Of a stretch of 63,477 bases of DNA, positions 10,696 to 62,112 are shown one piece after another (within the stretch, counting starts at the first letter, position 1; each line of letters begins with the position of its first letter). Source of the stretch: Hydrolagus affinis (taxonomy: Eukaryota); contig JAAILG010001698.1 in NCBI GenBank assembly GCA_012026655.1, positions 1-63,477 on the forward strand, read 5' to 3'. The position numbers were made by a program, and so were the translations under genes. A model generated the notes under the pieces. It made no database searches. It saw nothing but the letters and a program-made list of their open reading frames with translations, and was not told the origin of the DNA.

Positions 10696-10801
10696 ATGAT
10701 GTGCTGAGTAAGGATGCTGGAGAATGTGTAATCTGTTTGGAGGAGCTTCTGCAAGGAGACACAATAGCTCGGCTTCCTTGTCTGTGTATTTACCATAAAA
10801 G
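10696..10801 (+). CDS. ZNRF1: E3 ubiquitin ligase ZNRF1, RING-H2 exon (DDVLSKDAGECVICLEELLQGDTIARLPCLCIYHKS)
   Basis: TTTTCCAG acceptor, AG|GTACG donor, 106 bp, phase 1 to 2. ECVIC, LEELLQ and HKS match ZNRF1 rather than ZNRF2. LDHD is adjacent, as in human. Upstream exons were not found in the window. Confidence 0.95.
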
Positions 10802-21300: not shown

Positions 21301-21346
21301 AGTTCTTATTTATATCTGTAACAGTATTTTATTATCCTCTCTCCAG

Positions 21347-21404
21347 CTGTATAGATTCATGGTTTGAAGTGAATAGATCATGTCCGGAACATCCTTCAGA
21401 CTGA
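21347..21404 (+). CDS. ZNRF1: ZNRF1 last coding exon (CIDSWFEVNRSCPEHPSD*); the exon continues as UTR to the donor after 21444
   Basis: CTCTCTCCAG acceptor, phase 2 start compatible with the previous exon, TGA at 21402-21404, AAAG|GTAATT donor 40 nt after the stop. Confidence 0.95.
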
Positions 21405-33671: not shown

Positions 33672-33855
33672 TCAGCATTCTGAAGCAAGCTTCAGCACTT
33701 TCCCAGGATTCATGATGTTCTTGGGATCCAGTGTGGCCTTGATGTCGCTCATGACCTGCACGCCGATGTCCCCCATCTCTTCGATAAGCAGCTGCTGCTT
33801 GCCCAAGCCTATGCCGTGCTCCCCAGTGCAGGTCCCGTGCATTGCTAGAGCTCGC
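33672..33855 (-). CDS. LDHD: LDHD exon 11 ([19 protein letters not shown]...[13 protein letters not shown])
   Basis: CACGCAG acceptor, 184 bp to TGA, contains the GEHG metal-binding motif. Confidence 0.95.
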
Positions 33856-36800
33856 CTGCGTGTGTGAGTGTGTGCGTGCAAGAGAGAGAGAGGGAGGTGA
33901 TAAAAACGGAAGGTGACATTTAAGTCAAGAATTCAGTCCACGTGTATTTGCAGCTATGCTGGTATGCGAACCAACAGTCCTCAAGGCAAATTGTTTGCTT
34001 ACTTTGCAGCCATTTGGGGGATCTTGCGTTGTGCAAACCTGCTGCACTTGCCAACAATTCCACATGTAAATGTAATGATTTGTTACACCCCAGAGAATTG
34101 TGCAATCATACGCCAGCGTAATTTCACGCATAATATTTTCAGCTGCATAATATTACATAGGTATGTAATGGCCAAACTGCCTGATACCTCCCCCTCTCCG
34201 TCTCTCTTCCTGTCACTCTCTCCGCTGACTCCAGAATGCGACAGGAAGAGAGCGGATATGGCAACGGAGATATGACTCCTAAATAAAAGCATATAAATAA
34301 CAGTAAAGCGAAGTATCAATAGAAAATGGATGAAAACTGGCCTCCATGTCTTTCAAAAGAGGCTACAGTAGTGTTATCTGTATCGAAATGTTTTTAAAGT
34401 GTAATGTTTGCACAATCTTCATATCATTTTAAATTTTTCTGCGCAGGATTCCCTGAGGGATAGACTTGTCTCAGTACCTGGCCAGTCTGCTGGTGAACTC
34501 TTGCACCCGCTTGCTCTCCCCCTCATCCTCGGGATCCAGCAACATCAGGCAATGGAAGTTGCCATCTCCTACGTGGCCTGCGATGGGGCCTGGGGTTGTG
34601 AATGAGAGGGTGTTAGCAATGGACGTTAACATGGGAGACAGAGACACGAGTGGGAGCTCGTTCCGATGGCTTTTAATGAATTTATTCAGTGAGCGCTGCT
34701 CCTCCTCTCCATCCCCCTCAGTGAGAGCTGCCTCTTGACAACAGCTTATATTTATTTGTATAAATTGTATTGAAGCATTGCCCTGCCCCTCTCACAGTGT
34801 TTCCCCCACCAACACCCCTCCATCACCCCACCCATTGAACAGTATCTCTGACTAACTGACCTGTAAGCTTTGACTTCACCAAATCTTCTTTTGTAGCTAC
34901 AATTATTTCGGGCAGTTTGGAGAGTGGGACACAGACATCTGTTGAGTAAACCTGAAAACAAGGAAAACAGGTTATATTGTGTACCATGTGTATCATAATA
35001 ATCCTTGCATTTGATATATCACGTCTCCGAGATGCCTCAAAGCGCTTCACAGAATATACTGAATATGTAAAGTGAATTAATTGTATATTTTATGGGTGAA
35101 ACATGGCAGCCATTTGCGTACAGCAGTGTCCCACAAACAGTCAACGATTGAATGACCAAATTATTCTTTTTTTAAGGGATTATCATCCCCGGAAAAGCGA
35201 TCCACCAGCCAATTACTGCTAGTGAACAGAAGCATGTGGAGTAACGAAACTTGCCCAATGTTTCACACTGCCCGAGAATCGAACCCAGGTCCTATCGCTT
35301 GCGCGGCGAGTGCTCTGACGACTGATCTACGGGTTCCAAGGGTCAGATTCTGGCGTGTGGCTCTGGCCGGGCGGGTGGGGAATGTGGCTGGAGGGCCGAG
35401 CTCACCTTGCAGCCGGGCCTCAGGGCCAGAGCAGAGTACAGGGCATTGTGCCGAGCCTGCCACAGCCTGCTCCGCGTCTCCACGTCCCGCGCCCAGGAGA
35501 AGTCTGAGCCGCTGTTCTCTTTCACTATTCTCTCTGCGGGAGGAACACAGGAAGAGGCAGGAAGAACAGTGTGTAACATAGCAGGTGAGGTAGCATTTGT
35601 CCTACATGCTAAATCTAGTGTCTAATTATCTCTAAATTTCTTCCCTTTGGCACATGCCGCCCTGACTCTATAGTGGAGGGTAAGCCTTCTCTCTCCCACC
35701 CGCAGACACGGCATAGACTGGGATTTGAACCAGTGAGTTCCTGGGTTTGTGAGCTGAAGTTCTACCCCCTGCACGATGGTTAAATGTTCTTTACTGAGTT
35801 TCCCACGGCTTGGGCAATGAGTGGATCATCAATGGTTACCGCAGGACTTTCTGTCTAATGGTCCTGGGTACAGATGTGAGGCGTCTTCCACCATCCACTC
35901 TGTCCTTGCTGATGAGCTCCAATGAAATAGAGCTGTGATCACCTAATGGGAGTGTCTGTAGGGTGAAGACGGTTTCTATTAGATCTCATCAGATCTCACG
36001 AGATCACGGGATTGGTCTGGATGAAAAAAGCCTTTCGACTCAAACAATCTCATTATTCCAGAACCACCCACTCTACTGTCGTTCTCCCCCACCTCCCCCC
36101 CTTCACATCACTGGGCAATCTATTGCAGGCATTAATCAATCTCTCGGTGAAGCAGAATTTCCTGATGTCTGTCCCGAAATTGCCCTTTGCAACCATAAAC
36201 CTGTGTCCTCTTGGTGTCTGCTATCTTGGTGCACAGGGAAGCAGGGGAAGGGGCACGAAGAGGGGAGGGGGCACACAAGGAGGGGAGGGTGAAGAGGGGA
36301 GGAAGGCAGGAGAGCAACTAGGGACTCTAATCCTGTGTAGAGGGTCCTCAGCCAAACGTACAGAGCCTTCCACATCAGAAAGACATCCGAAGTCGCTATA
36401 GCAGCTAAGAGAGCATTACTCCACCTGTCACATGGATTTGATCTTCCAAGCTCCTCTCTGTCCCGTGGAATTCCAGGAAGAGCGTGGAGGTCTCGGTGTA
36501 GTTGAGATTGCTGTAGGTGTTACAGGCCCCAATCATCACATCATCCAGGAACTCTGAGGAGCAGAGAAACTGCAGCCTTCAGTCAACCCACTTGATTTGC
36601 AAGCTGCCTTTCTACCAGGTAAAGATACAGTCGTGTCTGCGTGTGACACTCGTTGATAGTCTTAGTCCCCTCTTCCATTCCAAGTCAGCCATGGCATTCC
36701 GATGTGCCAGACGGAAGAGCATCGAGTGAATGGGTTTCTCTATCCCAGTTTGCAACAAGCAGCACTGCTCCATTCGATGGTGTTCAATGCTACGGATTAG

Positions 36801-39800
36801 AGAGAATAACCAACCCCCATGGCAAGTGCACAGAGGCCTTGGCTGTGTTGTGATTTTGATTTACCAATCTCTTAAAGGGGTTTAAACAGATATTTCAAAT
36901 CTTCCCGATTGGGGAAAAATAAATGTTTTGATGGCAACTAGTTGCCATAAATCCATAATTAACACCCCCCCACCCCACTATTCACAACACTTCATCACAA
37001 GCCGAGGGAGGGAGGGAGGGAGGGCAGGTTTCCTTCTACTAAAATGAAGGTTCTATTTTTTATCTTCTTTTCCATCAGCCTGTTAAGGAAGACCTTTGGC
37101 TTTGCATCATTCCCAGAATTTAATTGTTTATCTATGGTTGACAGACACCCTGAGGGTGAAGGGGCCTATTCCGAGCCTTTAACATGACATTCATTGAAGG
37201 ACATTGGAATCACTATCAATTGGCATCATATCTCTGTGTGTAATTCCGCAAACCTGATGTGTGCTCGTGCCGGCTTATTACCTTTGTCCCTTACCTACCG
37301 ATCCTGGCTATCGGGACCCCGCTCTGCATGGTCTGCACGGTGCTGTCCACAGCTGCCTGGACGGTGGGGAACGAACAGACGGCAGAAACGATGCCTTCCG
37401 GCCTACCATGGAGACGCAGCGTGACCTGGGTTATTAGCCCCAGAGTTCCCTCTGACCCCACAAACAGATTGGTCAGGTTGTAACCAGCCGCCGTCTTCCT
37501 GTGTCACAGAGATTACAACTGGCGTTGGTGTTGGTTTGTCTGTGTCTCTGTGTCTGTGTCTGTCTACCTCTCAGTGCGTGCGCAGACGATTCCTCTTGTG
37601 TTTGCATGTGCGTAAACTTGTGTGTGCTTGTGTACGATGGTTGAACAAGTGTGTGCGAGAGAGATATGTTTGCGTTCACAATTCGGCACACACAAGCCCA
37701 TTTCTGCACGTGTCATCTCCTCCCTTCTCCTGACTTGGTGTTGGGCTCCGTCCCCGTTAAGCGGCTCTGAAACACTGCCCTGTTTGAAGGTCAATATTTA
37801 ATAATAATAATAATCCTTGCATTTGATTTTACGCTTTTCGAGTCTTGTAGACGTCTCAAAACACTTCACAGAATATACTGTAAAGTGAATTGACTGTATA
37901 TTTGTGGGCAAAACGCAGCAGCCACAGCAGCGTCCCACAAACTGTGGGTGATTTCAATTTTCACATAGATTGGGAAAACAAATTGGCAAAAGTAGGTTAG
38001 AGGAGTAGTTCATAGAATGCATTAGAGATAGTTTTTCTAGATCTGTATATGCCGAGGAACCAACCAGGGGACAGGCGATCCTAGACCTTGTTTTGTGTAA
38101 CGAAACAGGACTAATCAGCAATATAGATGTTAAGGCTCCTCCAGGGCAGAGTGACCATAACATAATGGAATTTAGCATTAAGTTTGAGAGTGATGTGGTG
38201 AAGTCCAAAACAAGGGTCTTAAATTTAAATAAAGCCAACTTTGAAGGTATGAGGGAGGATTTAGCTAAAATAGCCTGGGGAACTAGACTAAAGGATATAA
38301 TAATAGACCAACAATGGCAAACGTTTAAAGATATAGTACATACAACAACAACAACAAAATTACATATCTAGAGCACTTTTACGTCAGGAGGACATCCGAA
38401 GGCACATAATTCCCAACAGTCACATATTCCATTGAGAAATAAAAGTATTACAGGGAAAGTGGTTCGACCATGGCTAACTGGAGCAGTTAGAGAAAATATA
38501 AAATGAAGAGGTCTATAATACTGCCAAAAAGAGCAGTAAACCTGAGGATTGGGAGGGCTTCAGGGACCCACAAAGAAAAATAAAGAAACCGATTCAAAAG
38601 AGGGTTTCAAAAGAGGTGACTGATGAGGTAGTGGATGCCTTATGTTTGATCTTCCAAAATTCTCTGGATTCTGGAATGGTTCCCATTGATTGGAAGATTG
38701 AAAGATCGCAAACGTAACGCCACAATTTAAGAAGGGTGGGAGAGAGAAGATGGGGGACTATAGACCTCTTAGTCTGACATTGGTGGTAGAGAAAATTCTA
38801 GAATCTTTAATTAAGGATGTCTTAATGGGGTACTTAGAAGACTATAACATGATTAGGCAGAGTCAACATGGCTTTACAAATGGGAAATCATGCTTAACAA
38901 AATCATTTTAGAGTTTTTTGAGGATGCAGGCTCGAGGGGCCAAATGGCCTACTCCTGCTCCTTATTCTTATGTTCTTATACAATAAGGCTCTATATCTAT
39001 TGCAAGGATTATTATGATTATTATTATGTATGTGAAACCATATCTTGAGACACATTAAATAGTTTGGGACATGACGTGTGCAAGCGACTGCCAGATTGGT
39101 TGAAGGTGAACTGGATAGATCTTGGTCTTCTTTTGCCTTGCAAATTCTGATGTTCTGGTATGCATTTTATTTATATATGGTATAAACATGCATTATTTCT
39201 GAGTCTATGATATAAACTGTTGTTGTGTTTGTGTGTTTGTATGTGGCCCAGGCTACCCCCCCTCCCCCCCACCCCCCGTGTTCAGTACCTGAACCTGCGC
39301 TGTTTCCCTGCGGTGTGCACCACTCTACCGTCCGCCAGCACTACCTGCAGGTTGATGACGTTCTCCCTCATGGTGCCGTAACGCACTGCGTTGGTGCCCG
39401 AGGCACTGGTGGCTGCCATTCCACACAGCGAGGCATCCGCACCCGGGTCTGCAAAACAAATCCGCTCATTTCCCTCGCAAAGTCTGCCGAACACCAGCGC
39501 TGTAAGCGAACCCGCTTGACCCTGTTAGCGCACTCGACCTCGCAAGCGAGAGGACCCGGGTTCAATTCCTAGGTAGGGTCGGAGCGAATCCTTAGGCAAG
39601 TTTCCTGACTCTACACTCCTCTCTTTACCGAGCAGTAAGTAGGAACCTGGTGGTTAGTCGATTGGCAGGTCGCTTTCCAGGGGTAATAAACCCTCCCAAC
39701 CCCCCAAAAATAAATCCGTCATCGAATCCTTCCACCTCGCCCACTCCCTGGCCTCCTTCAAGGCCAGTCACCTTTCATCATGTTTTCAGACATACTCCCA

Positions 39801-42800
39801 TCTCCCCTCCTCTCCACACTCTTGATTCCCTTCACTGTCCAGTGGTTTGGGACATCCTTCCGACATGAAAGGTGCTCTTTCTATGTTGTTGTTGTTGTGG
39901 TGGTGGTGGTGGTGGTGGTGGTGTCCTCTGTAACCAAGCCAGGCGTGCAGTGTTCCTCCAATAGATCACTGGCAATGCTCGACTGGCTCACATTGTACCA
40001 AACTCACCAATCGGAAACCAGAGGCCAGTGTCCCGGAGATAATAATTCAGGCCTTTCCTGGTGACGCCCGGCTCCACCGTAACATCAAAATCCTCGGCAT
40101 TGACTTCTACGACTTTATCCATCCTGGTGAGGTTAAAGCACACGCCACCCTGAGGAGTGAAGACAGCGATGAGGGTCTGAGGAGGGACACACAGAGCGCA
40201 GTACTGTCAGCACCTGAGAGTCTGTAACTCTCATGGTAGCTGAGCGATTGGAACAACTTGATAACACTGGATAACACTGAGATAAGTCAGGTACAGTTGG
40301 GAGAGGCAGATAAATCTAGCACAGATGTTTCCAGTTTCTGTCCACTACGTACACACGTTCCTTGTTAACTTGCTCAACCCTGTCAATGCTAACCTGAGAT
40401 TCCCCCACAACTCAGTAGTTATAATCCTTATAATAATAATAGTAAATAATAATCCTTGCATTTGATACAACGCCTGATCCAAAAAGTATATTGACTGTGT
40501 AGTTGTGTAATATGGGAGTAATAATCCATATAACTTTAATGATCCTTGCGTTTGATGTTGTGTCTGCCTTTCATGTTGGGAGGACGGTATTTTGTAGGCA
40601 AACGCGGCAGCCAACTTGCACACAGCACGAGAACAGGGAACGGGGGCAGCCAAGCGCTATCGGTTTCAAGCCAATAGTCGAGTCTTGTTGTAACAACTTC
40701 TGTTTTGTGAATGGAATTACTGAAATCACTGTGATGCTCAGCAGAGCAAGTTGTTGTGTCCCAGGATTGGCGGGCGAGCTTTCAGCCATTCTTCCCCCCA
40801 CCCCCCTCTGCTTCCTAGGACTCCATCCCGGACTCCCTCCACCTCACCTTTTCCCTACTCAGCTTAAAACCAGCCTAACCCCGACTGATGAAACCTTACT
40901 GACTGTACATTCTGGACTTCTTAATAAATAATCTTTCCATTTAATAGACTGCCTTGAACAACAACAATTTTGATTGATATAGCGCCCTCCACGCCGGACG
41001 GCGTCTCAGAGCGCTTCACAGTAGCGGATCCCAGAATCAATACCAATCATTACATTTGATATAGCGCTTTTCACGTCTTCTAGCCGTCTCAAAGCACTTC
41101 ACAGAATATACGGTAAAGTGAACTGACTGTATGTTTTGTGGCCGAAAGACGGCAGCCAATTGCACACAGCAGTGTCCCACAAACAGTCATGGATTAAAAA
41201 TGACCATTTTTGTTTTGAGGGATTATCATCAGGCGTGTGGAGTAAAGAAACTTGCCCAAGGTTTCACCCTGCATGGAATCAAACCCAGGTCTCTCCCTTG
41301 CTAGGCAAGTGAGCTCCTGTGGCTCGGTGGTTAGAGCACTTGTCTTACAAGCTGGGGAGACCAAGCTGGGGAGACCAAGCTGGGGAGACCAAGCTGGGGA
41401 GACCTGTGTTCGAATCCAGGCAGGTCAGGGCAAAACCTTAGGCAAGTTTCCTTACTCCACACGCCTAATAATAATCCCTCCAAAAAAAACACAATAATAA
41501 AATTGGTCATTTAAATCCACGACTGTTTGTGGGACACTGCTGTGCGCAATTGGCTGCCGCGATTCGCCCACAAATATATACAGTCAATTCACTTTTATAG
41601 TATATTCTGTGAAGCGCTTTGGGACGTTGATAGGATGTGGAAAGCGCTATATCAAATGCAAGGATTATTATTATATAAGTGCTCTAAAAGGGCTCCGTGT
41701 GTGGACATGTGATGTACAGTATTTGACACTCAAACTAACCAAGATTCCTGCCGTGTACATCATGCTGGGCCTCTCCGGCGACCGTGTAACCATGGAAACT
41801 TGGAAGTCTGATGTACTTTGGAGCTATCCTGTGTGTCTGCCTGGTGCACTCTCGCCTCTTGAGTGGCAAGGTTTGCGTTCAAATACCATGTCGCGACTTG
41901 GAATCACATAATCTGGGCTCAACCTCCAATGAAGCGCTGAGGGTGTGTTGAATTGTCGGAGGTGCACATGTGATAAGGCGCTGTACCAAATGCAAGGATA
42001 ATGATGATTATTATTATTAGAATCGTGAAGTTGTTCCTGAAGTTATCCCATCATGAATGGGATTTGAACCACAATCTTGTAATGGTGTCTTTAACCTGTG
42101 TTTTGTTGTCTAAGATTGACTGTGCGCAGTGAGTGACGGGGGAGATCGGGGATGATCCACAGCTCGATGGGTTGAAAAGCAAATATCCTCATTGCACGTT
42201 TATGTAGTGACCACAAGAACCTACTGTACTGATCTGAGCAATGTCATTCAGGTCCACAGACTGTAAAACTTGCCTTGAATTCACAGCCTTTAACAAAATG
42301 TCTCAAAACACTTCTCCGTAAATTGTGGTGATTGTCTGTGTATTTGTAAGCAAGCAAAGGAATAATATCAGGCACTTGGGGGTAAGGAAACTTACCCAAG
42401 GTTTCACCCTTACAGGAATTGAACCCAGGTCTCTCACTTGCAAAGCGAGTGTTCTAACCATTGAGCTACAGGACTGCACAAAGCACCTACCGTCCAGGCA
42501 ACGACTCCTCCCTCCAACCCTGTGCCTGTGCCAAAGGGGATGATTGGGACGTTGTATCTGCAGCAGATTCTGGCTAGACTGCTGACCTGCTCCGTGCTCT
42601 GTGGCCACACCACCACGTCAGGGGGTTGACACCTGTTCAACACAAAGCCACCAGCTCAGAGTCCAAACCATCATCCCAACTTGTAACTGCATCTCCTCTA
42701 TGATTTGTCCACGTCTCCTCTGGGATAATGGCAAACTATAAGGGAAGTGTTACATTTGCTGGGAAGAGGGAATGAGTCAAATTAGCGAGATTACTGCCTG

Positions 42801-46374: not shown

Positions 46375-46656
46375 TGTTACTGTACACACACAGGCTGTTA
46401 CTGTACACACGCAGGCTGTTACTGTACTCACACACTGTTACTGTACACACGCAGGCTGTTACTGTACACACAGGCTGTTACTGTACACACACAGGATGTT
46501 ACTGTACACATGCAGGCTGTTACTGTACACACGCAGGCTGTTACTGTACACACACACTGTTACTGTACACATGCAGGCTGTTACTGTACACACAGGCTGT
46601 TACTGTACACACGCAGGCTGTTACTGTACACATGCAGGCTGTTACTGTACACACAG
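46375..46656. repeat. Minisatellite, about 19-21 bp unit TGTTACTGTACACA(C/T)GCAGGC
   Basis: More than a dozen directly visible copies abutting a gap. Confidence 0.95.
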
Positions 46657-46859
46657 ACTATGTTGAGTGTTGTCAGGCTGGGGGCTGGGGATGCTGCTGT
46701 ACCTGTGTTCGCTGCAGGAGACAGTGTGTCCAGGTGACTCTGCGTTTGACAGCGATGTAAGTGGAGAGTCTGAGAATGGCTGTGTGAGGAGCCATAACTA
46801 AACCTCCCTACTTACTGCTTGCTGATCGCCTCAGAGCAAGCGACAGAGAGCAAAAGAGA

Positions 46860-46991: not shown

Positions 46992-47245
46992 CCCGAGTTA
47001 CTCAGTGTTGATCAAGGATTGTATGTGAAGCCTTTACAGTGGTTCACGTAACACACTGTACAGCAATGGGAAAAGGCTTTCAACTCTGTCCACCAATCAC
47101 ATCATTATCATCTGGCATTTGCTGCAGCTCCTGTCAGTCACACTGAAAAGTCTCAAAGCACAGATTTGAGACGTGGAATTGCTGTTTAGTGTAGTAACTG
47201 TGTGTTTAGGTAAATGAGCGAGGCAGGTCCATCTGCACGAAATGG

Positions 47246-47658
47246 GGCAGCCAATTGCGCACAGCAGTGTCCCACAAACAGTCGTGGATTGAAATGACCA
47301 ATTTTATTATTTGGGGTTTTTTTTTGGACGGATTATTATTAGGCGTGTGGAGTAAGGAAACTTGCCCAAGGTTTTGCCCTGACCTGCCTGGATTCGAACA
47401 CAGGTCTCACGCTTGTAAGGCGAGTGCTCTAACCAGTAACCACTGAGCTACAGGACTCCATTTTCTTGATACCTGAAGAGGATGGAAACTCTATGGTACA
47501 AAGCCCACACTGGTATAGATTGTGCCTGTGTAAGTTACTGTGTGTGTATGAGGAGGTGGGGGAATTGAAGAGTTCTTTCCTAACTAAAAACTCTGACTCC
47601 AAGGCTTGGTGAGACCTGGACCAGAGTTCCAGGTGACTCCATTGTATGCCATTTCACA
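47246..47658. repeat. Local duplication, copy A (SINE part plus about 200 bp of non-SINE flank); copy B at 54883-55313
   Basis: Near-identical sequence, including the diagnostic CTAACCAGTAACCACTGAG and the flank TTTTCTTGATACCTGAAGAGG...GGTGACTCCATTGTATGCCATTTCACA. Confidence 0.9.
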
Positions 47659-48919
47659 GGTCTCATGCTTGTAAGTGGCGAGTGCTCTAACCACTGAGCT
47701 AAAGGAGCTCCAGAGTTAACTTAGAGTTTTAAACACAGACACAATGTCCCAAATCCACAGTCCTTCTCCAGTCTGGCAGAAGTCGCTGACCTCTCACTCG
47801 ATGGGAAAATTCTTTCTTCCTAGCATCTCATCAACGTCTCCGTGACTCCATTGGCTCAGTGTACCCAATGTTCATAACAACCAGGTCGGGTTTCAAGCCA
47901 TTGGTTTTGGGATGATTGTCTCTATTACCACTTGTGGCTCGTACTGTTGGCATCAATTGGCATTCGTCAAGTACTCATGAACTCTTCAACCAATGAATAT
48001 AAAAGTACAGTAAAAGTCCAATAAAGAATGCTTAACATTATATGAAAATTTTTTGCTCTCCCCTCTCTGCTCCTCCCCTCTCCTTCCACAAGCTCCAGTT
48101 ACCTCCTCCAGTTACCTGACCATGCATTGTTTAAGACACTAAGTTTGACATTGAGTTGGGGCCAGGCTGTCTGACAGTCACATCCCAGTCCTCACCCCCA
48201 TTCCAGGACCTGCACACACAGTCAGCAGAGGCTGGCACACCACTAACTGTACAACTCTGCTGCACCCGGACTGTGAACAGTTACCTCTACTCAGTTAACT
48301 CAGATCTTGGCTTGGTTTTGGGACATCTGTCCTTTGGATGAGATGTTAAACTGGGGACCTGTCTGCTTGTACAAGTGGGCATGAAACATCCCACAACACT
48401 GTTGGTAATTATATGACAAGAAAAGTTAGATTATTGGTTGTTAATCCCTCTCGTAGCACTTAGTTTATCCGGACAAGTTTGGACTTGCTGTATTGTTGCA
48501 GAAGATGTGACTGTGGCAACGCCGAAATCAAACAGATTTGGAGACCAACCACACCCCACGGGAAACATCTCGACTGAGTTGAGGAAGCGTTTGCAAACTC
48601 ACTGAAGCAGACGGTGGTCCCAAAGTGAAGGAGTGACAAGGTAGGAGATGAGGATTGTTCACAGTGTCTGCTTCTGCTGGTGGCTCCAATATACCTCTGG
48701 GGAGACATCTGCCCAGACTTACTTTTCAGTTCCAATTGAAGGTGCATGGTTCCCTGCAGCAGCAACAGCAGGGAAGCGACCTGAAAGAGCTTTGTTAAAC
48801 ATGTGTTTTTCCATGTGTGAAATTAACTTTTTACTTTACGCTTCACATTAACTCGTTACTTTTACTGCACAGAGCCTAAAGTGCAAGTGTTATAGTTTAT
48901 ATATTAAAGAATCACAGTT

Positions 48920-49170: not shown

Positions 49171-49363
49171 TCAGTGGTATGGGGTGGGGGAGGAGAAAAA
49201 TGACCAAAGGATACAGTCAAAGAGGTAGGTCTTGAGACTGACCTTGAAAGAGGTGAAGGATGAATCTGGTTGAAAAACATGTTGTCACAAGTATTGGAGT
49301 GAACTGAGCAAAGCAAAGAATGTACATTTTTACCTTATTTTCTGTTTCTCTTAAAGTGCCAGT

Positions 49364-50293
49364 ATGAGGCTATGCAAGAGGAGAGTGCTGTGTCTGTTGG
49401 GCCTCCTTGGATTGGCTTCCCTTGTCTTATGTATGCAGACGCTTTACAACTACGGGCCCAAGGTGCCTTTGAGAAGAAGCCAGGACACAGTTGGGGTTGG
49501 TCACCAGCGACCTCTTCTGCCACACAGCAAATCCCAAACTAAGAGGCTGAATTCTGTGGAGATTATGGAGTCCAACCTGAACCACTTAAAGGCCAAATCT
49601 GCCAGAAAAAAAACACTCAAAGCTGTGGTGAGGCTGTTAGGAAACGATAATGATATTGTAGAGCTTCCTGAAGCTGCACGTAATTCAGCTCTGTTCAAGA
49701 GAAAGGCAAAGTCCGGCCCGTGGTGTCCTCAGTTGGGTTGGTTTGACTCCACGGATCTTCTCAAAGGGTTGGCCTCCAATGGTCCAGTCACCTGGTTCAG
49801 TCAGAAAGACAAGGAACTGTTGAGGTTCCTGACCCAGGGATCTGTCCAGAAGATGGACTATCTCACCAGACATAGGCAGATGGTTCGAGTCATCCTGGCC
49901 ACTAACACATCTTCCCCTGTAGATGGCAGTAGAGACCACTGCAGAGCGGGAGTTTGCGCGCTTGTGAGGGAGCTCACCAATCTGAATGAAGTGGCAGCTT
50001 TCCATTTGGACAGGATCTTGGGCTTAAACGTCAGCCAGCCCGTGGTGTCTCGCCAGCTGACCTCCTGGCTCCTGCCCCACAGATTTACCGACGGTCACGC
50101 CAGGCCAGTGCTACGGTGGGACCCGGGCATCTCTCTGCCCCAAGGTGCCAACCAATACCAGGATGCCTACTTTGCCCGCATGGTCCAATACCCGTCCATC
50201 TTCAAACTGTGCGGCACAAGGAGCGACGGTGTGTGTCACCAGAACACTAGCCCGGAACTGCAGAAGATTAAACTCTTAGATTATTTCCTCCAG
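49364..50293 (+). CDS. FAM198/GASK1 (Golgi-associated kinase)-family protein, large first coding exon (310 aa)
   Basis: N-terminal basic plus hydrophobic signal anchor. TWFSQKDKELLRFLTQGSV, CRAGVCALVR, EVAAFHLDRILGLN, FTDGHARPVLRW and LLDYFLQ match FAM198A/B blocks as I recall them. Acceptor TTAAAG just before the ATG, CAG|GTAAGA donor (phase 0). Confidence 0.9.
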
Positions 50294-50739
50294 GTAAGAG
50301 AGAACGTGTGTTTATGGAGCCACTGATCACGTCTCAAAATAGACATTCGCCCACCTCAATTCCTCACTCCATAGGCTGCAGATCATCCAGAACTCTGCAG
50401 CTCATGTCCTCTCGAGGCTCTGCAAATCTTTCACCCCCATTCTCGCCCAACGCCACTGGCTTCCCATCACACAGAGGATTCAATTCAAGATCACCTTCAA
50501 GGCCCTCCATGGCCTTGCCCAATCCTAGCTCTGTGACCTCCTAAACCCCTACCAACACTCCGTTCCCTCTGCCCCTCTCTTGCTCGCTAACATTGTCTTC
50601 TTGGTTCCCCTCTATTCTTGGTAGGTTTTTACTATCTTCTATGGTGAAGACAGTCCCTCATTTGTACCTTTGATTTTACTTTGGTTCACCTGTACCTCGA
50701 AGGATTTTACTTTGAAGTGTAGTGACTGTATTATGTGTA

Positions 50740-50900
50740 GGGGCAACATCCCACAAAACAGCCATGTTATCTGGGGGATTGTTGATCAGGATGCCTGGAG
50801 AAACTTGCTTGTCTTTTTATATAGCGCCATGGGATATTTAACAGGCACAGATGGGAGCCCGATTTAATGTCTTATCTGAAAGACGGCACCTCCGACACTT
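50740..50900 (-). mobile_element. Older Deu-SINE fragment
   Basis: GCCATGGGATATTTAAC...CGATTTAATGTCTTATCTGAAAGACGGCACCTCCGACA is the reverse Deu core. Confidence 0.7.
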
Positions 50901-51453
50901 ATCGAGTTCAGGGTCAGGCACAGTATTCAGATAGAAGACACAATACAAAAGAAATTGCAGGAAGTTGTGACTGAATTTTACACTCGAGCTTATGTGGCTT
51001 TTAACCACAATAGTGTTGGGGCTGCAAACTGCCGCGTTTCTCTTTGTGAGCAAATCGTCTCTTTGAGTCAAGGCAGAATTAGGTCATCTTGTGTAGTCTG
51101 CGCTGTAGCCTCTCATATCACTGTCTGTGATGGTGTAACACAACAGAAACCTCGCCTTCTCGCTCAGACATCCTGTGCTGTTCAAATATCATTCTCGTCA
51201 TCCCTCCCCTCGACTGAGCCCCTGGTAGATGAGTTGTCTCAAGCTCAAGGCGATACATGCCTCTTCAGTGTCTCACTAACTCTCTTGCCTCCAGCCGCAG
51301 TCGGCTCCATTTCACCTCTGTGTTTTTCACTGATTCTCGCTCTCTGCCCCCCTCACCCACGACAGCATACCTGCCCTCTGTGAGGAAAAAGTGTGTGAGG
51401 CAGTGCATTGTCACTGAATCCGATCAGTCCTCACAGATGCACCCAAACCCAAA

Positions 51454-51563
51454 GTGTGTGTGTGTGCATTTGGATGTGTGTGGCGTGTTTGAGTGTGTGT
51501 GTGTGTGTGTGTGTGGTGTGTCTTTGTATGTGTGTGTGGGTGTGTTGTGTGTGTGTGGGTGTG
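51454..51563. repeat. Imperfect (TG)n microsatellite
   Basis: Directly visible. Confidence 0.9.
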
Positions 51564-52234
51564 TTACTGGGTAACAACTTGCATTTACGTGGGGTAGAGT
51601 CCCGGAGTAATACTATAATATTACTAATATTATAGTACTGCAATAATATTTGCTTCTCTAAGTCCCACAGTTGAGACTGGGATGTAATGTCATCAGCAAT
51701 GCCCTGTAGAACTGCAGACCTGTTCAGCTCAGGAACTGCTACCGAGGTTCGACTCGATTCCGACAGTCAGTTGACAGAGCACATTCAGTTGGGTTCGCTT
51801 TGTGGGAGACACCGTTTACCTGCCAGCTTGCCTGCTCCCCGACAACCCCCAACAAGGAAAAATCTACTAATTCAGGAGAGGATAGTAATTATAATGCTTG
51901 CATTTGTTACAGTGCCTCACATCACGTCTTCTAGACGTTTCAAAGGGCTTCACGGCATGTACTGCAAAGTGTATGTTTCGTGGGCGATGAGAAAATCATT
52001 GGAATCAAATCTTTTGTTCTACGAGGTAATCACTGTGTGAGAGGCAGCGAGGTTTTTCAGTCTTGCGAGGGCTTCGGAGCTGATTGATCTTAACTCTCGG
52101 CAGTGGAAGGGTTAGCTGCTTTTACGTTTGAGATCTGCCGTGAGAGATAACCTCGTCACTGTTGCTGGCTGCTGTACTGATTAATCACTTTCTCCCAGCG
52201 CAATCTCGGCCTGTCAGTCACAATCCTGTTGGCA

Positions 52235-52334
52235 NNNNNNNNNNNNNNNNNNNNNNNNNNNNNNNNNNNNNNNNNNNNNNNNNNNNNNNNNNNNNNNNNN
52301 NNNNNNNNNNNNNNNNNNNNNNNNNNNNNNNNNN
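52235..52334. other. Assembly gap (100 N) inside the FAM198-like intron
   Basis: Run of N. Confidence 1.
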
Positions 52335-53789
52335 ATGAAAGGAGGGAGTCTAGGACACAATTATACAGGCTCAAGTACACATTTTATCTTTTGACTATTG
52401 GATAACAAGGGGCTGGAGACTGGGATGTGGTGGGGGGGAAGGGGGTGGGGGGGTGGAACGCAGTCTATTTTTATATCCTTGTCTGACAGCCTGAGATTGT
52501 ATTTTTAAAGCCCCTGAACACCCCACCACCACCTCCACCACACACACACACACACACATACACACACACAGTGTGAGTTGCTTTCTGCAGGAGTGACTAT
52601 TTAAAGGTCTTTATTGAATTACGAAAGTCTCTGCAAAAGGTTTGACCTTAATCCCAGAGGTTTGAACTAATCTCTCTGCCGCTTCATTACTGCCGCTTTA
52701 ATGGTCTGCCAGCGACTTTGCAGTCTCACAATCTGACAAGCTGCATTCTGGAAGGAGCTGGTCTGATCTCAGTCAGGTAGAGTTGAGCCAAAGCACTGAG
52801 CCTCTCAATCCCGAGCCTGACACGGAATAGGATCAATGCCAACCAGAGCAGCTTGAATCTATACAGCGCCCTTTAAGCAGGATAGGATACCCCCTTTGAT
52901 TTTATTCTTCCAGAATACCCACCCAATACTGTCCTCCCATTACAATATTAGGCCACGTCTTAAATGAGTCCAGCTTTCTTTAGCCACCCTTCCTGGTGTC
53001 TGTCCTCACAAATTGCACTCATAACCTTGATTGTCTAGTCCTATCTGACAGTATAGTTCCAGGTTTCCTACACCCCATCAAGCATTATGTTGTACAGGGC
53101 GATCAAAATGTTGTGAATCTATTGCAATGTTTAATAAATCTTAAAGAAATGATGATAATGTATATATTTTTAGATAGCAAGGTAGCGTCACGATTTTTTA
53201 CTCACCCTGTCTATTCTTCTGGTGACTTTGAGACTTCTCTTTTCAAGGATAAATCACCCTAGCTCTATCCAGTCACTCCTCTTAGGTCATTCCTTTTAAC
53301 AATGGCCATTATCCTCATTGCTCTCTTCTGTTCTGTCTCGAGTGATACCCGCTTAACTGCACACACACACATTGTTCCAAGTGCTGCACTCTACAGCTTC
53401 AGCACGACGTCTGGGGTTCTCAACTCAACTGATTTGGCAACCTCGTCCAGCTTTGTTTGCCTTGTTCACTATGGCTCACAGTGTTTTCTATGTGTTGAGG
53501 GACAAGTTAAAGTACACCCTCAAGTCCCTTTCCCTTGCCAAGCGTTAGCCCACCCAAGCAGTCAGTGTTGTTGCAGTCCCAAGGAGAGACAAAGAGCTAA
53601 AGGCAGGAGATGAGCAGTTGATCATTGATATCCAGCAATGAATTGGAGAAGAGCGTTTTGCCAGGGAGTTAATTAACTCCACCATTCACCATTCACTATT
53701 CACCATTCATCTGTACTTGCTGATTCTTCAAGGTCTGGTACCAGCAACTTGCGTTCATATACCGTTGTGCCTTTCAAATTGGATGATAT

Positions 53790-54103
53790 TAACAATCCTT
53801 GCAAGTGGTATAGCACTTTTCACATCTTATCGAGGTCTCAAAGCGCTTCACATAGCTTATTGTAAAGTGCATTGACTGTATATTTGTGGGTGAAACGTGG
53901 CAGCCAATTGCGCACAGCAGTGTCCCACAAAGAGTCGTGGATTGAAATGACCAATTTTATTGTTGTGCGTTGTTTTTGGAGGGATTATTATTAGGCGTGT
54001 GGAGTAAGGAAACTTGCCCAAGGTTTTGCCCTGATCTGCCTGGATTCGAATACAGGTCTCACGCTTGTCAGGCGGGTGCTTTAACCACTGAGCTACAGGA
54101 GCT
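53790..54103 (-). mobile_element. tRNA-derived SINE
   Basis: Near full-length match to the family. Confidence 0.9.
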
Positions 54104-54344
54104 CAGCAGATATTGTATAACAGAGAGCACTGAGCAGGAAAATGGAAATTTAAGGATCTTGATCCCAAAATCTTGGTCAAAGAAATATGTTTTGAAGAAG
54201 GTTTTGAATGCAAGAAGAGAAGAAACAAGCCAACGAGATTTTGGCAGAGCCTTCCAAAGGTCAAAACTCAGCCACTAAAAGTAGGAGTTGACATTAAAAC
54301 CCTTTTTGTTGTCAGCTAACTTGTTTTTCTTATTATTCTCTCAG

Positions 54345-54418
54345 GAAGATGAGATGCTTTCAGCCGGTTCTGACCACAAAAAGGATCGGAATTCTGTGAC
54401 CTTCGTAGGTTTGGATTG
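54345..54418 (+). CDS. FAM198-like penultimate exon (EDEMLSAGSDHKKDRNSVTFVGLDW)
   Basis: CTAAC branch point plus TTGTTTTTCTTATTATTCTCTCAG acceptor, TG|GTGAGT donor. The 74 bp run phase 0 to 2 and exactly bridge the flanking exons. FVGLDW|LP aligns with family LEGIxx|FP. Confidence 0.75.
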
Positions 54419-54782
54419 GTGAGTGTAAGTGCAAGGGTGTATGAGAGGTCGACTGGCATTTACAGAGTAGACAGACACCAACTCCTGGCAATAAGACAAC
54501 AGAGTAATGCACAGAGAGTCTCACTCCAGGAAAGGAAGGGTGGGATAAAGCTGGAATGGCGGGAGAGGGGTTTGGGAGGAGGTTAAGTGAGGAAGAATGA
54601 GTGATGGAAGAGTGACTGAGATACATTGCTAGGCCAAGGGGTGTGTGGGCGCAATGAGGAAGTGGGTGACAGTGTGGGTAATGACTGGAGTAGGGTGTGT
54701 GTGAGGTGGGGAAATGCCAAAGGGCAAATTAAGTCAAGGTAGGGCAAGGGGCACCCAGTTCTCCCCTTTAGGGTCATTTCTT

Positions 54783-55091
54783 AATAATAATCCTTACATT
54801 TGCTATAGCGCTTTTCACGTCTCAAAGCGCTGCACAGAATACGCTGTAAAGTGAATTGACTGTATATTTGTGGGCAAATCGCGGCAGCCAATTGTGCACA
54901 GCAGTGTCCCACAAACAGTCATGGGTTGAAATGACCAATTTATTATAGTTTTTTTTTTGAGCGATTATTATTAGGCGTGTGGAGTAAGGAAACTTGCCCA
55001 GGGTTTTGCCCTGACCTGCCTGGATTCGAACACAGGTCTCACGCTTGTAAGGCGAGTGCTCTAACCAGTAACCACTGAGCTACAGGACTCC
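54783..55091 (-). mobile_element. tRNA-derived SINE (part of duplication copy B, which extends to 55313)
   Basis: Full-length family match. Confidence 0.9.
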
Positions 55092-55389
55092 ATTTTCTTG
55101 ATACCTGAAGAGGGTGGAAACTCTATGGTACGAAGCCCACACTGGTATAGATTGTGCCTGTGTAAGTTACTGTGTGTGTGTGTGTGTGTGTGAGGGGATG
55201 GGGAGTGGGTGGGGGAATTGAAGAGTTTCTTTCCTAACTAAAAACTCTGACTCCAAGGCTTGGTTGAGACTTGGACCAGAGTGCCAGGTGACTCCATTGT
55301 ATGCCATTTCACACAGATCCAGCAGGTGGAGCTATTAATGGGGATGTACTGCTGCCATTCACTGTTACAAGCTCTTGGGCAAGAGTTAA

Positions 55390-55772
55390 TATTAATAATC
55401 CTTGCATTTGATACAGCGCCTTATCACGTCTTCAAGACGTCTCAGCGTGATTCACAGAATATACTGTAGAGTGAATTGACTGTGTAGTCTATAACGCGGA
55501 TGAAACGCGGCAGCCGATTGTACACAGCAGTGCCCCATAAACAGCTGTGAATTGAGTGACCAATTTATTTGTTGTTTATTTTGGAGGAGTTTTTACATCC
55601 GGAAAAAAACGATCTGCCAATTGAGTAACACCCAGGTTCCTACTTCGTGCTAGGTAAACAGAGGTGTGTGGAGTAAGGAACCTTGCCCAACCTTTTGCCC
55701 TTGTGGGAATCGAACCCAGGTTCTCTCGCTTGCCATTCATGAGTGCTCTAACCACAGAGCTACAGGACTCCA
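55390..55772 (-). mobile_element. tRNA-derived SINE, long subfamily
   Basis: Contains the extra CCAGGTTCCTACTTCGTGCTAGGTAAACAGAGG segment. Confidence 0.85.
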
Positions 55773-55929
55773 ATAATAATAATAATAATAATCCTTGTGT
55801 TTGATGCCTTAACATGTCGTTGTTCAGTTACTGAAGCTAGCAGCAATCAAAAGTCCTGTGAGAAAAGGAACAGCGGTCAGATTCATATTGATTTGTACAT
55901 TTAACGCCATATTTTTTGTTTGAGCTCAG

Positions 55930-56128
55930 GCTGCCTCGCAAAACTCTGGAGGTTATTTCCTCGGGGTGTCTGCCTGGATCGCTGGTGCGCTCTCTGTATG
56001 GAGACCAGGAATACTGGCTCAGCAAGAGCCCACGCGAGGTGGGCAACCTGGTGGAGAGAATCGGCAAAAGAGCCAACGCGTTTCTGAAGCGCATCCGTGA
56101 AAGGCAACGGAAGAAGGCGTTGGTGTAA
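55930..56128 (+). CDS. FAM198-like last coding exon (LPRKTLEVISSGCLPGSLVRSLYGDQEYWLSK...KKALV*)
   Basis: CTCAG acceptor, phase 2 start. SGCL..L..SL..D..YW.S matches the FAM198A/B C-terminal block. TAA stop. Confidence 0.85.
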
Positions 56129-56716: not shown

Positions 56717-58481
56717 CATCCGTGTCAGCTGTTTCAGTTGTTGCCGTAGGAGGAAGCAGTGCCTCATTTGTGTGTGTAAGTGTGTGGGGGGTGGTGGGGG
56801 GTGGGGGAGCGAGGAGGGGAGAATGACCTTGTTATGATAATTGAGTGGATTGACAGCAAGGCAACTCAGTGAGGAGTGGCTGCTTTCACCGATGAGATGA
56901 CCTTACAGCAGCTGAGGGAATCCCCTCACGTGTTATATTAATGGTGAGTCATCCCAGTTGCCTACCTGTGTGACCTGTGCCCTCGTGTCAGGCACCTGTC
57001 AGAGCATGTGAAACCCAAAAACGTTCAATGCGATACATGCAGGCGTTTTTCACGTCAAGAGGACATCCCAAGGCACTTAGGAGTTCCTGGCTGGGCAACT
57101 GAGATGGGGGTTGGGTGGGAGCCGAGGGGGCGGGGAGAGGAAAGATGTCTGAAAGCGCGGGCAAAGAGCTAGGTCTTGAAATGGACCTTGAACGAGGTGA
57201 GGGAGGAAGCGAGCAAGTCAGAGGGACTATGGGATGAAGTTGTAAGAGCAGATGGTGGGTTGGTTAGGGTTGCAACAAGCATGTGGAACCCAGGTTGTTT
57301 AATGGATTGTGACCATCACTCCTTCCTAGCTTCCCCCCGTTGAGATGAACGAAAGTTTTGCACATGCTGAGTTCCTTAACGTGCGTTGATTTCTAATTCG
57401 ATTCATGAATTGATTCGTGAATCTAATGGCAACTCTTCCCTGTGACGGGAATTAACCCCTCTTTCTCCCCCTCACTCCTTCTCCCTTTGATTTTGTTTTG
57501 AAGGTAGATATAGCGCCTTGGGACGTCCTCCCAACGTGAAAGGAGCTATATAAATGTAATTTTGGTGTTGTTATTGTAGATGGTACCAGGTAAGTGTTGC
57601 ATATCTAGGATTTCCTTATGGGAAGATCCCATTGAAATTGTTATATGTGTGGAGTGCAAGGTGTTTAAGTCGATGCCAAAGGGTGCTGTGTTGGGGGCTC
57701 TGTCCAGTCTGCGCCCTGGGTCTGTCTGGTCCTCAGTTCATGAGATCACTAGATTAGAATGGTTTGGATGAAGAAGGTCTTTAGTCCATCCGATCAAATC
57801 CCTCCAGAAACAACCCCCCTACCCTGCCCATCCATGCATCACAGCATTGAGTGCTTCTTAAATGAGCCCAGTGTCCTGGCCTCAACCATTCAAGATGGCA
57901 ACCTGTTCCAATCGTTAGTTCGAATCGTTAGTTCGAATCGTTAATTCCCCTCTGGGTAAAGATAGCGAAATCCCAGTCGGCGCCGGTACCTCAGTGAGAC
58001 AGGACTATTGCCCAAACTGGGAATGACGGGGGTTGAGGCAGGCAGCGGCTGAGTGCCCCTGTCTATGTGTTTCCTTTACTATAATAACAGAGCATCTAAC
58101 TCGTGAGAGGAGATACGAAAAACAGCTTCATAGCAAAACACACAACCCAGGGATCAATACTTGTAACAACAAGGCAATAGCTTGTCATTTCTGAATAAAA
58201 TAAGGACCCAATCATCAAGGATTACAACAGCGCTCGGGAACATGTTGAATTATCTTGTGTGAGCTTTCGGAGAGAGAACAATGGCCCATTAAAGCACATC
58301 AGGCCACAGAGGCTATTTTGGGTCAGTGTTTCTGTCTTATCTGAAGCCCTGCAGTATGTGTGTCTCAGCGCAGAGATGCTTTCATTGGGGATGAGTCAGC
58401 TGCCAACCGAGCATTCTATTTTGGTGTGTTTTCTGATATATCCCAAGAGCCTGAATGGAACATGTTTTCAGGAACTATCAG

Positions 58482-58855
58482 TCACACACTCTCACACACA
58501 CACTCACCCACAGTCTCTCGCACACTCATACTCACTCTGCTGCACTCCCAAATACACTCACACACATGCACGCTGACACACTCTCCCACACTGTCTCTCA
58601 CACACATACACCCACTCATACTGTCTCTCACACTCACGTGTGCACACACACTCACTGTCGTTTGCACACTCAAACACACTCGTGCACTCACACTCGCTCC
58701 CAAACACATTCACACTCACAGTCTCTCACACACTGTCTCTCACACTCTCTGATGCACTCTCATTCACATACACTCACTCAAACACAAACACACAATCTCA
58801 CGCACTCAGACAGACAGACGCACGCACGCACGCACGCACGCACACTCTCTCACAA
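58482..58855. repeat. Degenerate (CA)/(CT)/(CGCA) microsatellite tract
   Basis: Directly visible. It explains the His/Thr-rich ORFs. Confidence 0.9.
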
Positions 58856-60959
58856 AAATTTCTGAGATATTGTTGTTGCTGTCGAAGCGGGTTACACCGA
58901 GTGGTTTTGAGGCAGAGAGAAGACCCGAGAGAGCCAAGCTGTGACCCAGATTACCTGTTACAGGCACGTGTTGGTGGCTTTAAGCCACAGGCTGGTTGCA
59001 TAAGAACAGAGTGACACTTGTAGGATTCGGGAGGCAGCCAATATAGCTGTGTGTCCGCAGTGTCCTCAGGTGCCGAAACACAGAGCTCGGTAAGGTGCTA
59101 TGATAATAATAATTTATTGATACAGTGCCTTATCATGTCATCAAGCATCTCAAAGCCCTTCACAGGGTATATAGACTGTCAAGTGAATCGACTGTGTATT
59201 TTGTTGCCTCAAAGGGCTGCACGTTAATGGTCCGTGACACCTGCCCAGCCCACCCAGATGGAGGATCTGAAACGTATGTGGCGTGTGGCGAGGTGACAGG
59301 TTTTAGCCGCGAGGCATATTAAAGGATTATGGGGTGAAGACTAAATTAAAATGGGATTCGGGTTAAGAGGGGATTAAACCAGGCCAAGGAGGGTTGGAAA
59401 ATAAAAGTGACATTGCTGGAAAGCCACAAAGCAGTTTGCATAAGGAGAGTGAGAGAGAGGGGGAGAGGGAAGGAGAAACCGTTACTCATTACACTGAGAA
59501 GCAGCTGGAGCGTTGGCCAGGGATATGTATATATCACTATCTCTCTCTCTCTCCAGCATCAATTATTGCTCACAAAATATACAGTCATTTCACTTGATAG
59601 TACATTTCTGTGAAGCGCTTTGAGGCGTCTCAAAGATGAGATGAAGCGCTTCAATCAAATGCAAGAATTATTATTATTACTCGACACTCACCCCAAGGTG
59701 GTTGGGCTGTGGTGGGGAGGGGGTATAGGCAGAGGGTGGAGACGGTGGGCAGCGGGAGTGGGGTGCCCTCTGTTAGATGCCATCCGAATCGATCAGATGA
59801 AGAAGAGACGCATTCTTAAGCATTATTTCTCCAGAGGAAGAGAGGGTAATGGATATGTATATGGATATGTGGGTGGGAGGGGAACTGTGCTGCCTCTTTG
59901 CATGAGTGTTTGCACGGTGTTCCGTCGCTAAGGCAGAAACTCATCCATGGCAGACAGCAAAGCCAGTATTCAGGGCTGACAGATCTGTGTGAGAAGACAG
60001 AGAAAAACTAGCTGTTATCTCCTCCCTCCCCGCCACCCCACCCCGCACACGCTCACACACGTTAACCTTGCTTTTTTCAGGCAGGGAGATGCATCTTTTA
60101 TAAAAACCCATGCCGGCAGCTTGTGGGACATGGATCCTTGTGATCGCCCACAAGTGATGTGGCTGCACTCGGTTTGTCAAGTCAAAGGAGTGAACAGTGA
60201 CGGGGATGTCAGTGTAGAAAATCAGCCCTGCGCGCAGCACTGGATGGTTCGGATGCAGATTAGATGTGAAGCTGAATCATCCGCAGAGCGGAATGTTTTA
60301 CGGCTGACAGTCCATTAAGGACAACGTGTCACTTATGCCGCAGATTATTTGTAACTCGGGAGTGGAGCAGAGGGAGGGAGAGGGGATTGTAGCATCTTCC
60401 AGATCTTCAGCTTCTTTCAAACAGTGTCATGGGATTTATCACATCCACCTGACAGTGGTGGGGTGGGGGGGTGGGTGGGGTGGGGTGGGAGGGTGGGTGG
60501 GGTGGGGGGAGGGGGGTTGGGTGCGGGGGGAGGGGGGGTTGGGTGGGGGGTGGGGAATGCATGAAGGGCGCTATATGAATGCAAATGCTGTTGAATAAAG
60601 CCTTGGCAATTTAGCAACTGATCCACAGGCCAGCGGCTTGGATAATGTTAACTCCCCCAGCACTGGCATGGGCAAGTCAACCTAGGCTTTGAGCTGAAAT
60701 TTGCCTCCAAGCCGCAGCGGTGGGGAGAATATCTGCTGGACACTGCACTAGAGGGACACACAGCTCTTCAAAATCCAAAGGGGGAGTGGACAGATGGTAC
60801 AGAGTGGAGCTAAATAGGATGAAACTGTATCCACATGGATCCCTGATGTACTGACTAAGTGAACTATTCCATTGTCAGACTGGCTTTTCAATAATGAATG
60901 AGGTCAAACTAGTTGAGCAGTTGCACTCGAGACCAGAATAAGGCACAGTGGGAGATACA

Positions 60960-61359: not shown

Positions 61360-61676
61360 AATAATAATAATAATCCTTGCATTTGATACAGTGCTTTTCA
61401 CGACTTCTAGACGTCTCAAAGTGCATCACAGAATATATTGTAAAGTGAATTGACTGGATATATGTGGGTGAAACGTGGCAGCCAATTGCACATGGCAGTG
61501 TCCCACAAACGGTTGTGGATTGAAATAACAAATTTATTACTGTATTTTTTGGAGGGATTATTATAAGGCATGTGGCGTATAAGGAAACTTGCCCAAGGTT
61601 TCACCCGGCCCAGGAATTGAACCCAGGTCTCTCACTTGTAAGGCGAGTGCTCTAACCACTGAGCTACAGGACTCCA
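61360..61676 (-). mobile_element. tRNA-derived SINE (dominant family), full length
   Basis: From the tail to CTGAGCTACAGGACTCC. Confidence 0.9.
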
Positions 61677-62112
61677 CAAGATATAAGATATAAACACTCC
61701 CACTCCACGTAAGAATGCACACAAACCGCATCATTTATTCTGAGACTGTGAATCCTTTCATTTCCTGGTTGGAAAGAGTAATAATCTCTGTGTTCAGAAA
61801 AAGGAATCAAATTCTGTTGCCATCTACGACCTCCCCTTTCCTCTCCTCTCCCAGTGCAGAATATGTGTTTGCTGAGCATGCAGTTAGACTGTATCGATCT
61901 GAGACACCGCCTGGCAGTGTGCCCGTGTACTACCACACAAGTCATTCTCTCCCAAACATCAGGAAGGAAGAGAGCGGGTGGAGGGGAGTAGAGAAATTGA
62001 ACCTTCTGAGAGGATACTGCCAGTTCTCCCACCCCTCCCACACCAAACAGAGAAGAGAAACTTCTATAAGATATTCAAGAAAGGGAAGTGGTATTATTTC
62101 TACACAGTATAC

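Follow-up and report, generated by a model that had tools for sequence, protein, structure and literature searches.

The window analyzed here, a 63,477-nt stretch of genomic DNA from the chimaera Hydrolagus affinis (contig JAAILG010001698.1), carries at positions 49364–56128 a gene of the GASK1/FAM198 family of Golgi kinases. Comparison of its sequence with those of its relatives suggests that this gene, hereafter called the short paralog, represents a third paralog of GASK1/FAM198 in jawed vertebrates, one that lacks a 51-residue segment predicted to hold both the catalytic and the metal-binding Asp, and that its product is probably a secretory pseudokinase that acts by binding a partner. The product is likely to be a dead enzyme because the segment predicted to contain the catalytic residues is missing in every copy. 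The gene is already predicted in databases; its status as a separate paralog and the deletion appear not to have been described before.

Deletion of the predicted catalytic segment

Measured between LLQ and the following L/F-P, the segment was 77 amino acids long in 12 of 12 aligned GASK1A sequences, 77–78 in all three GASK1B sequences, and 73–91 in nine invertebrate sequences. In the short paralog, the corresponding length was 24–27 amino acids in 13 of 14 sequences and 50 in that of the ray Hemitrygon. The 51 residues by which the short paralog falls below GASK1A comprise one 41-residue exon, which is gone, and a reduction of the next exon, in which the remaining 36 of the 77 residues are down to 26 and the profile match is lost. 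The first 41 residues can be regarded as one exon because a GASK1A-type gene model (P0032) omits exactly these residues. The HDR Asp, the RLD Asp, the CCG cysteines, and the IDN motif occurred in every GASK1A sequence (12/12) and in no short-paralog sequence (0/14).

According to the sections of the papers used here, Fam20C requires D458, D478, K285, E311, and E306 (PMC4421793), and Asp299 is the catalytic base of hydra Fam20 (PMC5865150). The GASK1 sequence FDFLLQVHDR aligned, in weak local matches, with FDFLIGNADR of hydra Fam20, the Fam20 pattern being FDFL(I/M)GN(A/M)DR; the aligned hydra Asp is Asp299 because the numbering offset of 22 is fixed by the alpha-C Glu. The equivalent of this catalytic Asp (D458 in Fam20C) was found in 0 of the 14 short-paralog sequences. 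From its spacing, we infer that the Asp of the GASK1 IDN motif is the equivalent of Fam20C D478 and a predicted metal ligand; it was likewise retained in none of the 14 sequences, versus all 12 of GASK1A. At the Lys-Glu ion pair (K285 and E311 in Fam20C), the Glu was kept in 13 of the 14 sequences, and the presumed beta-3 Lys, the position of which was assigned by alignment with GASK1A only, was Lys in eight of them and Arg in the chimaera gene. The NRSLP Arg, the EW Trp, and the NDQNS motif were also altered or lost. Meanwhile, the linker length, the signal anchor, four cysteines, HLxR, and D-x-x-x-W were retained across chimaeras, sharks, coelacanth, holosteans, and salamander. In these alignments, the predicted catalytic segment is deleted from all 14 short-paralog sequences. 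An earlier note on this DNA had described the gene as a member of the Golgi kinase family, which holds for its FAM198 match and its Fam20-type fold, but not in the sense of an intact kinase.

Some lineages deviated further. Two ray sequences (P0011 and P0127) carry a 24-residue insert, unlike the lost exon, at the junction of exons 1 and 2, and those of sturgeon (P0130), bowfin (P0132), and gar (P0026) share a second deletion of approximately 20–30 residues before the first C-lobe cysteine. In the Hypanus model, His replaces the Asp of HLDR and the anchor is absent. Among GASK1B sequences, three of teleost type (P0059, P0047, and P0085) have Asn or Gln at the position of the Fam20 catalytic-base Asp, and two of the three have INN or similar in place of IDN; GASK1B itself may be a pseudokinase in some lineages, judging from these residues.

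Phylogeny and distribution

A phylogenetic tree was constructed from 37 kinase-domain sequences and 264 columns, after 21 of 58 sequences had been excluded as partial, near-duplicate, or long-branched. The phylogeny that the earlier note had proposed was to include FJX1, FAM20, and lamprey; it was run with the GASK1 groups, and FJX1, FAM20, and named lamprey sequences are absent from our trees. The short form was a single clade (100/100) that grouped with GASK1A (100/97), and GASK1B paired with an amphioxus gene (100/98), which implies an older split of GASK1B; a quick tree of 49 sequences agreed. A duplication confined to cartilaginous fishes was rejected by the approximately unbiased (AU) test (p-AU 8.5e-5), and a grouping of the short form with GASK1B was weakly rejected (p-AU 0.034). 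The short and GASK1A groups each contain cartilaginous and bony fishes, and the trees place the short/GASK1A duplication before the split of these two lineages. These results support the view, put forward in the earlier note, that the gene is an ancient third GASK1/FAM198 paralog nearer to GASK1A than to GASK1B.

A profile search over 50%-identity representatives gave 118 matches, of which 30 were looked up by name. Eight of the 118, in addition to one repetitive false match, scored better on the short-form profile than on the canonical profile, and these came from C. milii (Callorhinchus milii), Chiloscyllium, Hypanus, Latimeria, Acipenser, Amia, Lepisosteus, and Ambystoma. Once cluster members were counted, the short form occurred with open frames in 17 named species, its carriers being chimaeras, sharks, rays, coelacanth, sturgeon, gar, two bowfins, and axolotl. 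The earlier note's proposal that the gene was kept in cartilaginous fishes was borne out in C. milii, sharks, and rays but was too narrow, as the bony fishes and the salamander in this list attest. Five species (C. milii, Cetorhinus, Latimeria, Lepisosteus, and Ambystoma) possess the short paralog together with full-length GASK1A, the gar having GASK1B as well, and the two genes are on contigs of different size in Latimeria, Ambystoma, and Cetorhinus. Because these five species possess both genes, the chimaera gene is not a GASK1A ortholog, and the possibility that it was simply the sole GASK1A ortholog of its genome is contradicted by the separate clade as well.

No teleost, frog, amniote, or mammalian cluster was among the eight short-type representatives of the 118. 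The short paralog was therefore probably lost in teleosts, frogs, and amniotes, with the limits that representatives hide cluster members and that 30 of the 118 matches were named. For mammals, a probable loss is also in keeping with a review in which FAM198A and FAM198B are the only members (PMC7948968). A query with the axolotl protein gave four matches and no further short-type member, and another profile search gave six matches among 7999 scored candidates, both being insensitive searches that depend on shared words. The ESM Atlas yielded FAM20A and GASK1A clusters (0.92 and 0.89) and nothing further.

Gene model and predicted structure

Exons at 49364–50293 (930 nt), 54345–54418 (74 nt), and 55930–56128 (199 nt), all on the + strand, join into an in-frame sequence of 1203 nt encoding 400 amino acids and a stop codon. 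Both predicted introns, as read from the genomic DNA, have GT donors and pyrimidine-rich AG acceptors. The first coding exon (310 amino acids) encodes the anchor, a low-complexity basic stem, the kinase N-lobe, and the first half of the C-lobe, and ends in LLDYFLQ with a phase 0 donor. Its hydrophobicity peak is predicted to be a signal anchor of type II or a signal peptide (residues 8–24; 49385–49435, +): the 17 consecutive residues of highest hydrophobicity in the protein (mean Kyte-Doolittle 2.7) begin at residue 8, behind a basic N-terminus, and the peak fell at residues 7–11 in 14 of 14 short-type sequences, the topology being a prediction. The FHLDRILGL motif (50000–50026, +), common to Fam20 kinases, lies downstream of the alpha-C glutamate. 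The second coding exon (24 amino acids plus 2 nt) encodes a short linker, predicted to be disordered, in place of the IDN-bearing exon, and the last encodes C-terminal helices with the S-x-C-L and D-x-x-x-W motifs. Directly 5' of the ATG, a pyrimidine tract and AG (49325–49363, +) are likely to be the acceptor for an upstream non-coding exon. Several AATAAA/ATTAAA hexamers occur at 58194–59405 (+), 2.1–3.3 kb downstream of the stop codon.

Exon 1 matched positions 11–178 of the Pfam FAM198 profile (PF15051; E 7.9e-27, 94.4 bits) and exon 3 matched positions 255–314 of 321 (E 1.1e-8, 34.7 bits), both above the cut-off of 25 bits, and exon 2 searched alone against Pfam had no match. From the ends of these two matches, the 24-residue exon therefore stands for 76 profile positions. 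When the C. milii ortholog was used as a tblastn query, all three chimaera exons were found. The closest protein (among nine matches from 2447 candidates) was a C. milii model of 404 amino acids with 79% identity over exon 1; next came six "Golgi-associated kinase 1A-like" proteins of sharks, with 42–46% identity and an equally short middle. The three-exon model is real, agreeing with database models of this form from 17 named species; the exon coordinates, the open frame, the signal anchor, and the FAM198 blocks that the earlier note had reported were all recovered. Over 49200–51400, a related DNA run (X1) continued unbroken across the exon 1 donor, and RNA runs from another organism (X2–X4) gave partial matches near the HLDR motif with at most 27 reads, which are neutral with respect to the junctions.

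Intron 1 (50294–54344, +), the site of the 41-residue catalytic exon in GASK1A, contains a 100-N gap at 52235–52334, and it might be argued that the missing exon lies in this gap, or was overlooked by gene models, and that the protein is an active kinase. The junctions were predicted from DNA, a 31-residue extra exon is present in one older model from C. milii, and the ray insert mentioned above occupies the same junction, all of which would fit such an explanation. Against this, independent models from 17 species lack the segment, which makes an exon hidden in the gap unlikely, and the downstream exon that is present has lost IDN as well. The C. milii and ray inserts had negative scores against a profile built from the missing exon, and in the chimaera the extra-exon stretch contains a stop and lacks a full-length acceptor. 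Across the window, in which the 100-N gap is unreadable, the best score with the missing-exon profile was 4.8 bits, versus 57–65 bits on canonical proteins. We consider a hidden catalytic exon very improbable and retain the reading of a deleted segment.

The structural model of the C. milii ortholog (predicted local distance difference test score, pLDDT, 64.7) has a helix at residues 5–29 and pLDDT values below 50 at the stem (31–120) and the linker (315–329). Its best structural matches were Fam20 proteins (Z 12.7, root-mean-square deviation [rmsd] 3.5, 203 aligned residues), and the domain model of coelacanth GASK1A (pLDDT 92.8) gave Z 18.6, rmsd 3.3, and 246 aligned residues. The approximately 40 fewer aligned residues in the short model fit the deletion, although the two models differ in quality. 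Outside the segment, the short paralog is predicted to keep a kinase fold of the Fam20/four-jointed type.

Origin of the short paralog

A protein of 594 amino acids (P0045), in which Gly, Ala, Arg, and Pro make up 50% of the first 380 residues, was the sister of the short clade (99/96) in a tree of 36 sequences in which 45% of the P0045 columns were filled and the axolotl sequence was excluded. The reading frame is lost in its tail, where a shift by one base would fit a complete catalytic segment; the shifted segment (58 of 91 positions) scored 243 versus 63–99 in 12 shuffles. By this score, P0045 appears to keep the catalytic segment. Its composition and position suggest a cyclostome sequence, and if that is true, the duplication would be older than jawed vertebrates and the deletion would lie on their stem.

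We assume that human LDHD adjoins BCAR1 and that human GASK1A lies near 3:43 Mb. The short-type gene of the gar lies on a contig of 18.06 Mb, a size compatible with LG23. In the examined part of the curated table of ohnologs in PMC8040251, paralogon 10 includes BCAR1 (human 16:75.2 Mb, gar LG23) in column B and LIMD1 (human 3:45.6 Mb) in column D, the two columns having separated at the first duplication; FAM198, GASK1, and ZNRF1 are not in that part. The fit is suggestive only because TRAK1 (human 3:42.0 Mb), near GASK1A, is assigned to paralogon 1 in the same table (PMC8040251). The short paralog was likely born in a vertebrate genome duplication. The whole sequence of events can be put forward only tentatively, and we regard it as possible rather than probable: an early genome duplication would have produced a third GASK1, the catalytic exon would have been dropped on the gnathostome stem while a sister, possibly of cyclostomes, stayed intact, and the product would have become a dedicated regulator of secretory kinases that teleosts and amniotes later lost.

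Proposed function and its alternatives

As we picture it, the signal anchor would bring the short paralog into the secretory pathway. A phase 0 exon would have been lost on the jawed-vertebrate stem, with the reading frame kept because the exon was of phase 0, and phosphotransfer would be absent after the loss. The protein would then act through binding, most likely to a GASK1- or FAM20-type kinase, and would later have been lost in teleosts, frogs, and amniotes. For a kinase as the partner in particular, by analogy with the regulation of FAM20C by FAM20A as described in the parts of two papers cited here (PMC4421793 and PMC7948968), the chance is somewhat less than even.

Several observations weigh against the proposed pseudokinase. 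The monophyly of GASK1A is weak (62/40), and the short clade is on a long stem, which makes its exact attachment unsure. The short paralog diverges roughly twice as fast as GASK1A, with 41% versus 65% identity between C. milii and coelacanth and 30% versus 59% between C. milii and gar. In run X1, eight codons of exon 1 differ, with five non-synonymous and three synonymous changes, one of them at the otherwise invariant Arg217. The short-form structural model is of moderate confidence (15 sequences), and the ohnolog view, itself suggestive, depends on where GASK1A and LDHD are assumed to lie in the human genome. Furthermore, the activity of GASK1A is disputed, with none ascribed to it in the relevant passages of one review (PMC7948968) and activity asserted in those of another (PMC13170776).

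The rate of change, the five non-synonymous and three synonymous codon changes in X1 including Arg217, the Hypanus model, and the want of teleost, frog, and amniote clusters among the short-type matches would also suit a slowly decaying leftover that is expressed, weakly constrained, repeatedly lost, and without a specific job. Eight codons are, however, too few for an estimate of selection, and the open frame, the 24–27-residue linker, the anchor, the four cysteines, HLxR, and D-x-x-x-W are kept from chimaera to salamander. The deletion has been kept for approximately 450 million years, and neutral sequence is not expected to keep an open frame for so long; decay of this kind is improbable.

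The emptied fold could instead serve as a surface for a task that has nothing to do with kinases, the protein being shed as an extracellular ligand, for instance, or binding glycans or matrix proteins. Such a role would be in keeping with the loss of substrate-side motifs (NRSLP Arg, EW Trp, and NDQNS) along with the active site, with a basic stem that might be cleaved, and with FAM198A, reported in part of one study to be matured from a precursor and secreted (PMC9941534). The analysis revealed neither a new conserved motif nor a new domain, FAM198 was the only Pfam match above the cut-off, and we consider this explanation unlikely. A secretory pseudokinase that binds a partner is the reading we prefer.

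Surrounding window

To the left of the short paralog, a motif scan found two RING exons of ZNRF1 type (10668–10811 and 21303–21401, +), and FAD-oxidase_C matches together with the motif scan identified LDHD-type exons (33675–42655, −) that stand head to head with it. These are the neighbors the earlier note had claimed, and both names, that of LDHD in part, were assigned from motifs. A tandem repeat with a tgttactgtacaca-type unit, flanked by two assembly gaps, occupies 46375–46660, a region that could be the site of a promoter shared with LDHD. A short interspersed repeat is present in many copies (47200–47660, 53730–54100, 54790–55330, 61370–61680, and others), of which those at 47240–47660 and 54880–55320 look nearly identical. 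Within intron 1, the stretch 52708–52776 (+) shares 65% identity over 23 amino acids with the extra exon of the older C. milii model; it was rejected as a coding exon because of an upstream stop and the lack of a full acceptor, and it may be a conserved non-coding element. Behind a good AG acceptor, an open stretch at 60085–60318 (+) matched the Mind bomb SH3 repeat weakly (21.7 bits against a cut-off of 24, E 2.5e-4) and had no match in the ESM Atlas; it is possibly an exon of a different gene, or a chance occurrence.

Comparison with known relatives and significance

In the sections of a review used here, FAM198A and FAM198B are the only members named (PMC7948968). The short paralog resembles GASK1A/FAM198A in its signal anchor, stem, fold, exon boundary after LLQ, and C-terminal exon; GASK1A is also its nearest group in the tree, with 33% domain identity to C. 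milii GASK1A, but has 575–650 amino acids versus 400. GASK1B/FAM198B has the family and the fold in common with it but keeps the 77–78-residue segment, shares 25% identity, and split off earlier. The closest functional model is FAM20A, which, according to the part of the source cited here, arose in vertebrates by duplication of a secretory kinase and has lost catalysis (PMC4421793). FAM20A belongs to another family, however, and keeps the D458 and D478 equivalents, being disabled by one Glu-to-Gln change, whereas the short paralog lacks the whole segment and its binding to a kinase is a proposal by analogy.

Automatically predicted "Golgi-associated kinase 1A-like" models at NCBI (such as XP_007905799, XP_064414841, XP_015223429, and XP_069460348) are orthologs of the chimaera gene. 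The NCBI labels ("1A-like," "uncharacterized," and, in Amia, "1A") mark neither a separate paralog nor the loss of the catalytic segment, so that the gene is not already a named paralog, a possibility the earlier note had raised. No description of a third GASK1/FAM198 paralog or of the deletion was found in the open-licence literature searched, outside which lie bioRxiv supplements with gene-loss tables that could include it; the main text of bioRxiv 2025.07.03.663111 does not mention it. The present analysis would correct the labels of genes now filed as GASK1A or 1A-like kinases.

In the four-jointed/Fam20/FAM198 group, the one pseudokinase that has been studied well, FAM20A, is disabled at a single residue; the loss of a whole exon would be a different route to the same end. 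A natural dead paralog would reveal which surfaces are conserved without catalysis, in a family in which the substrates and activity of GASK1A and GASK1B are debated, and the species with the short paralog in which its role may be tested include axolotl, gar, sturgeon, and catshark.

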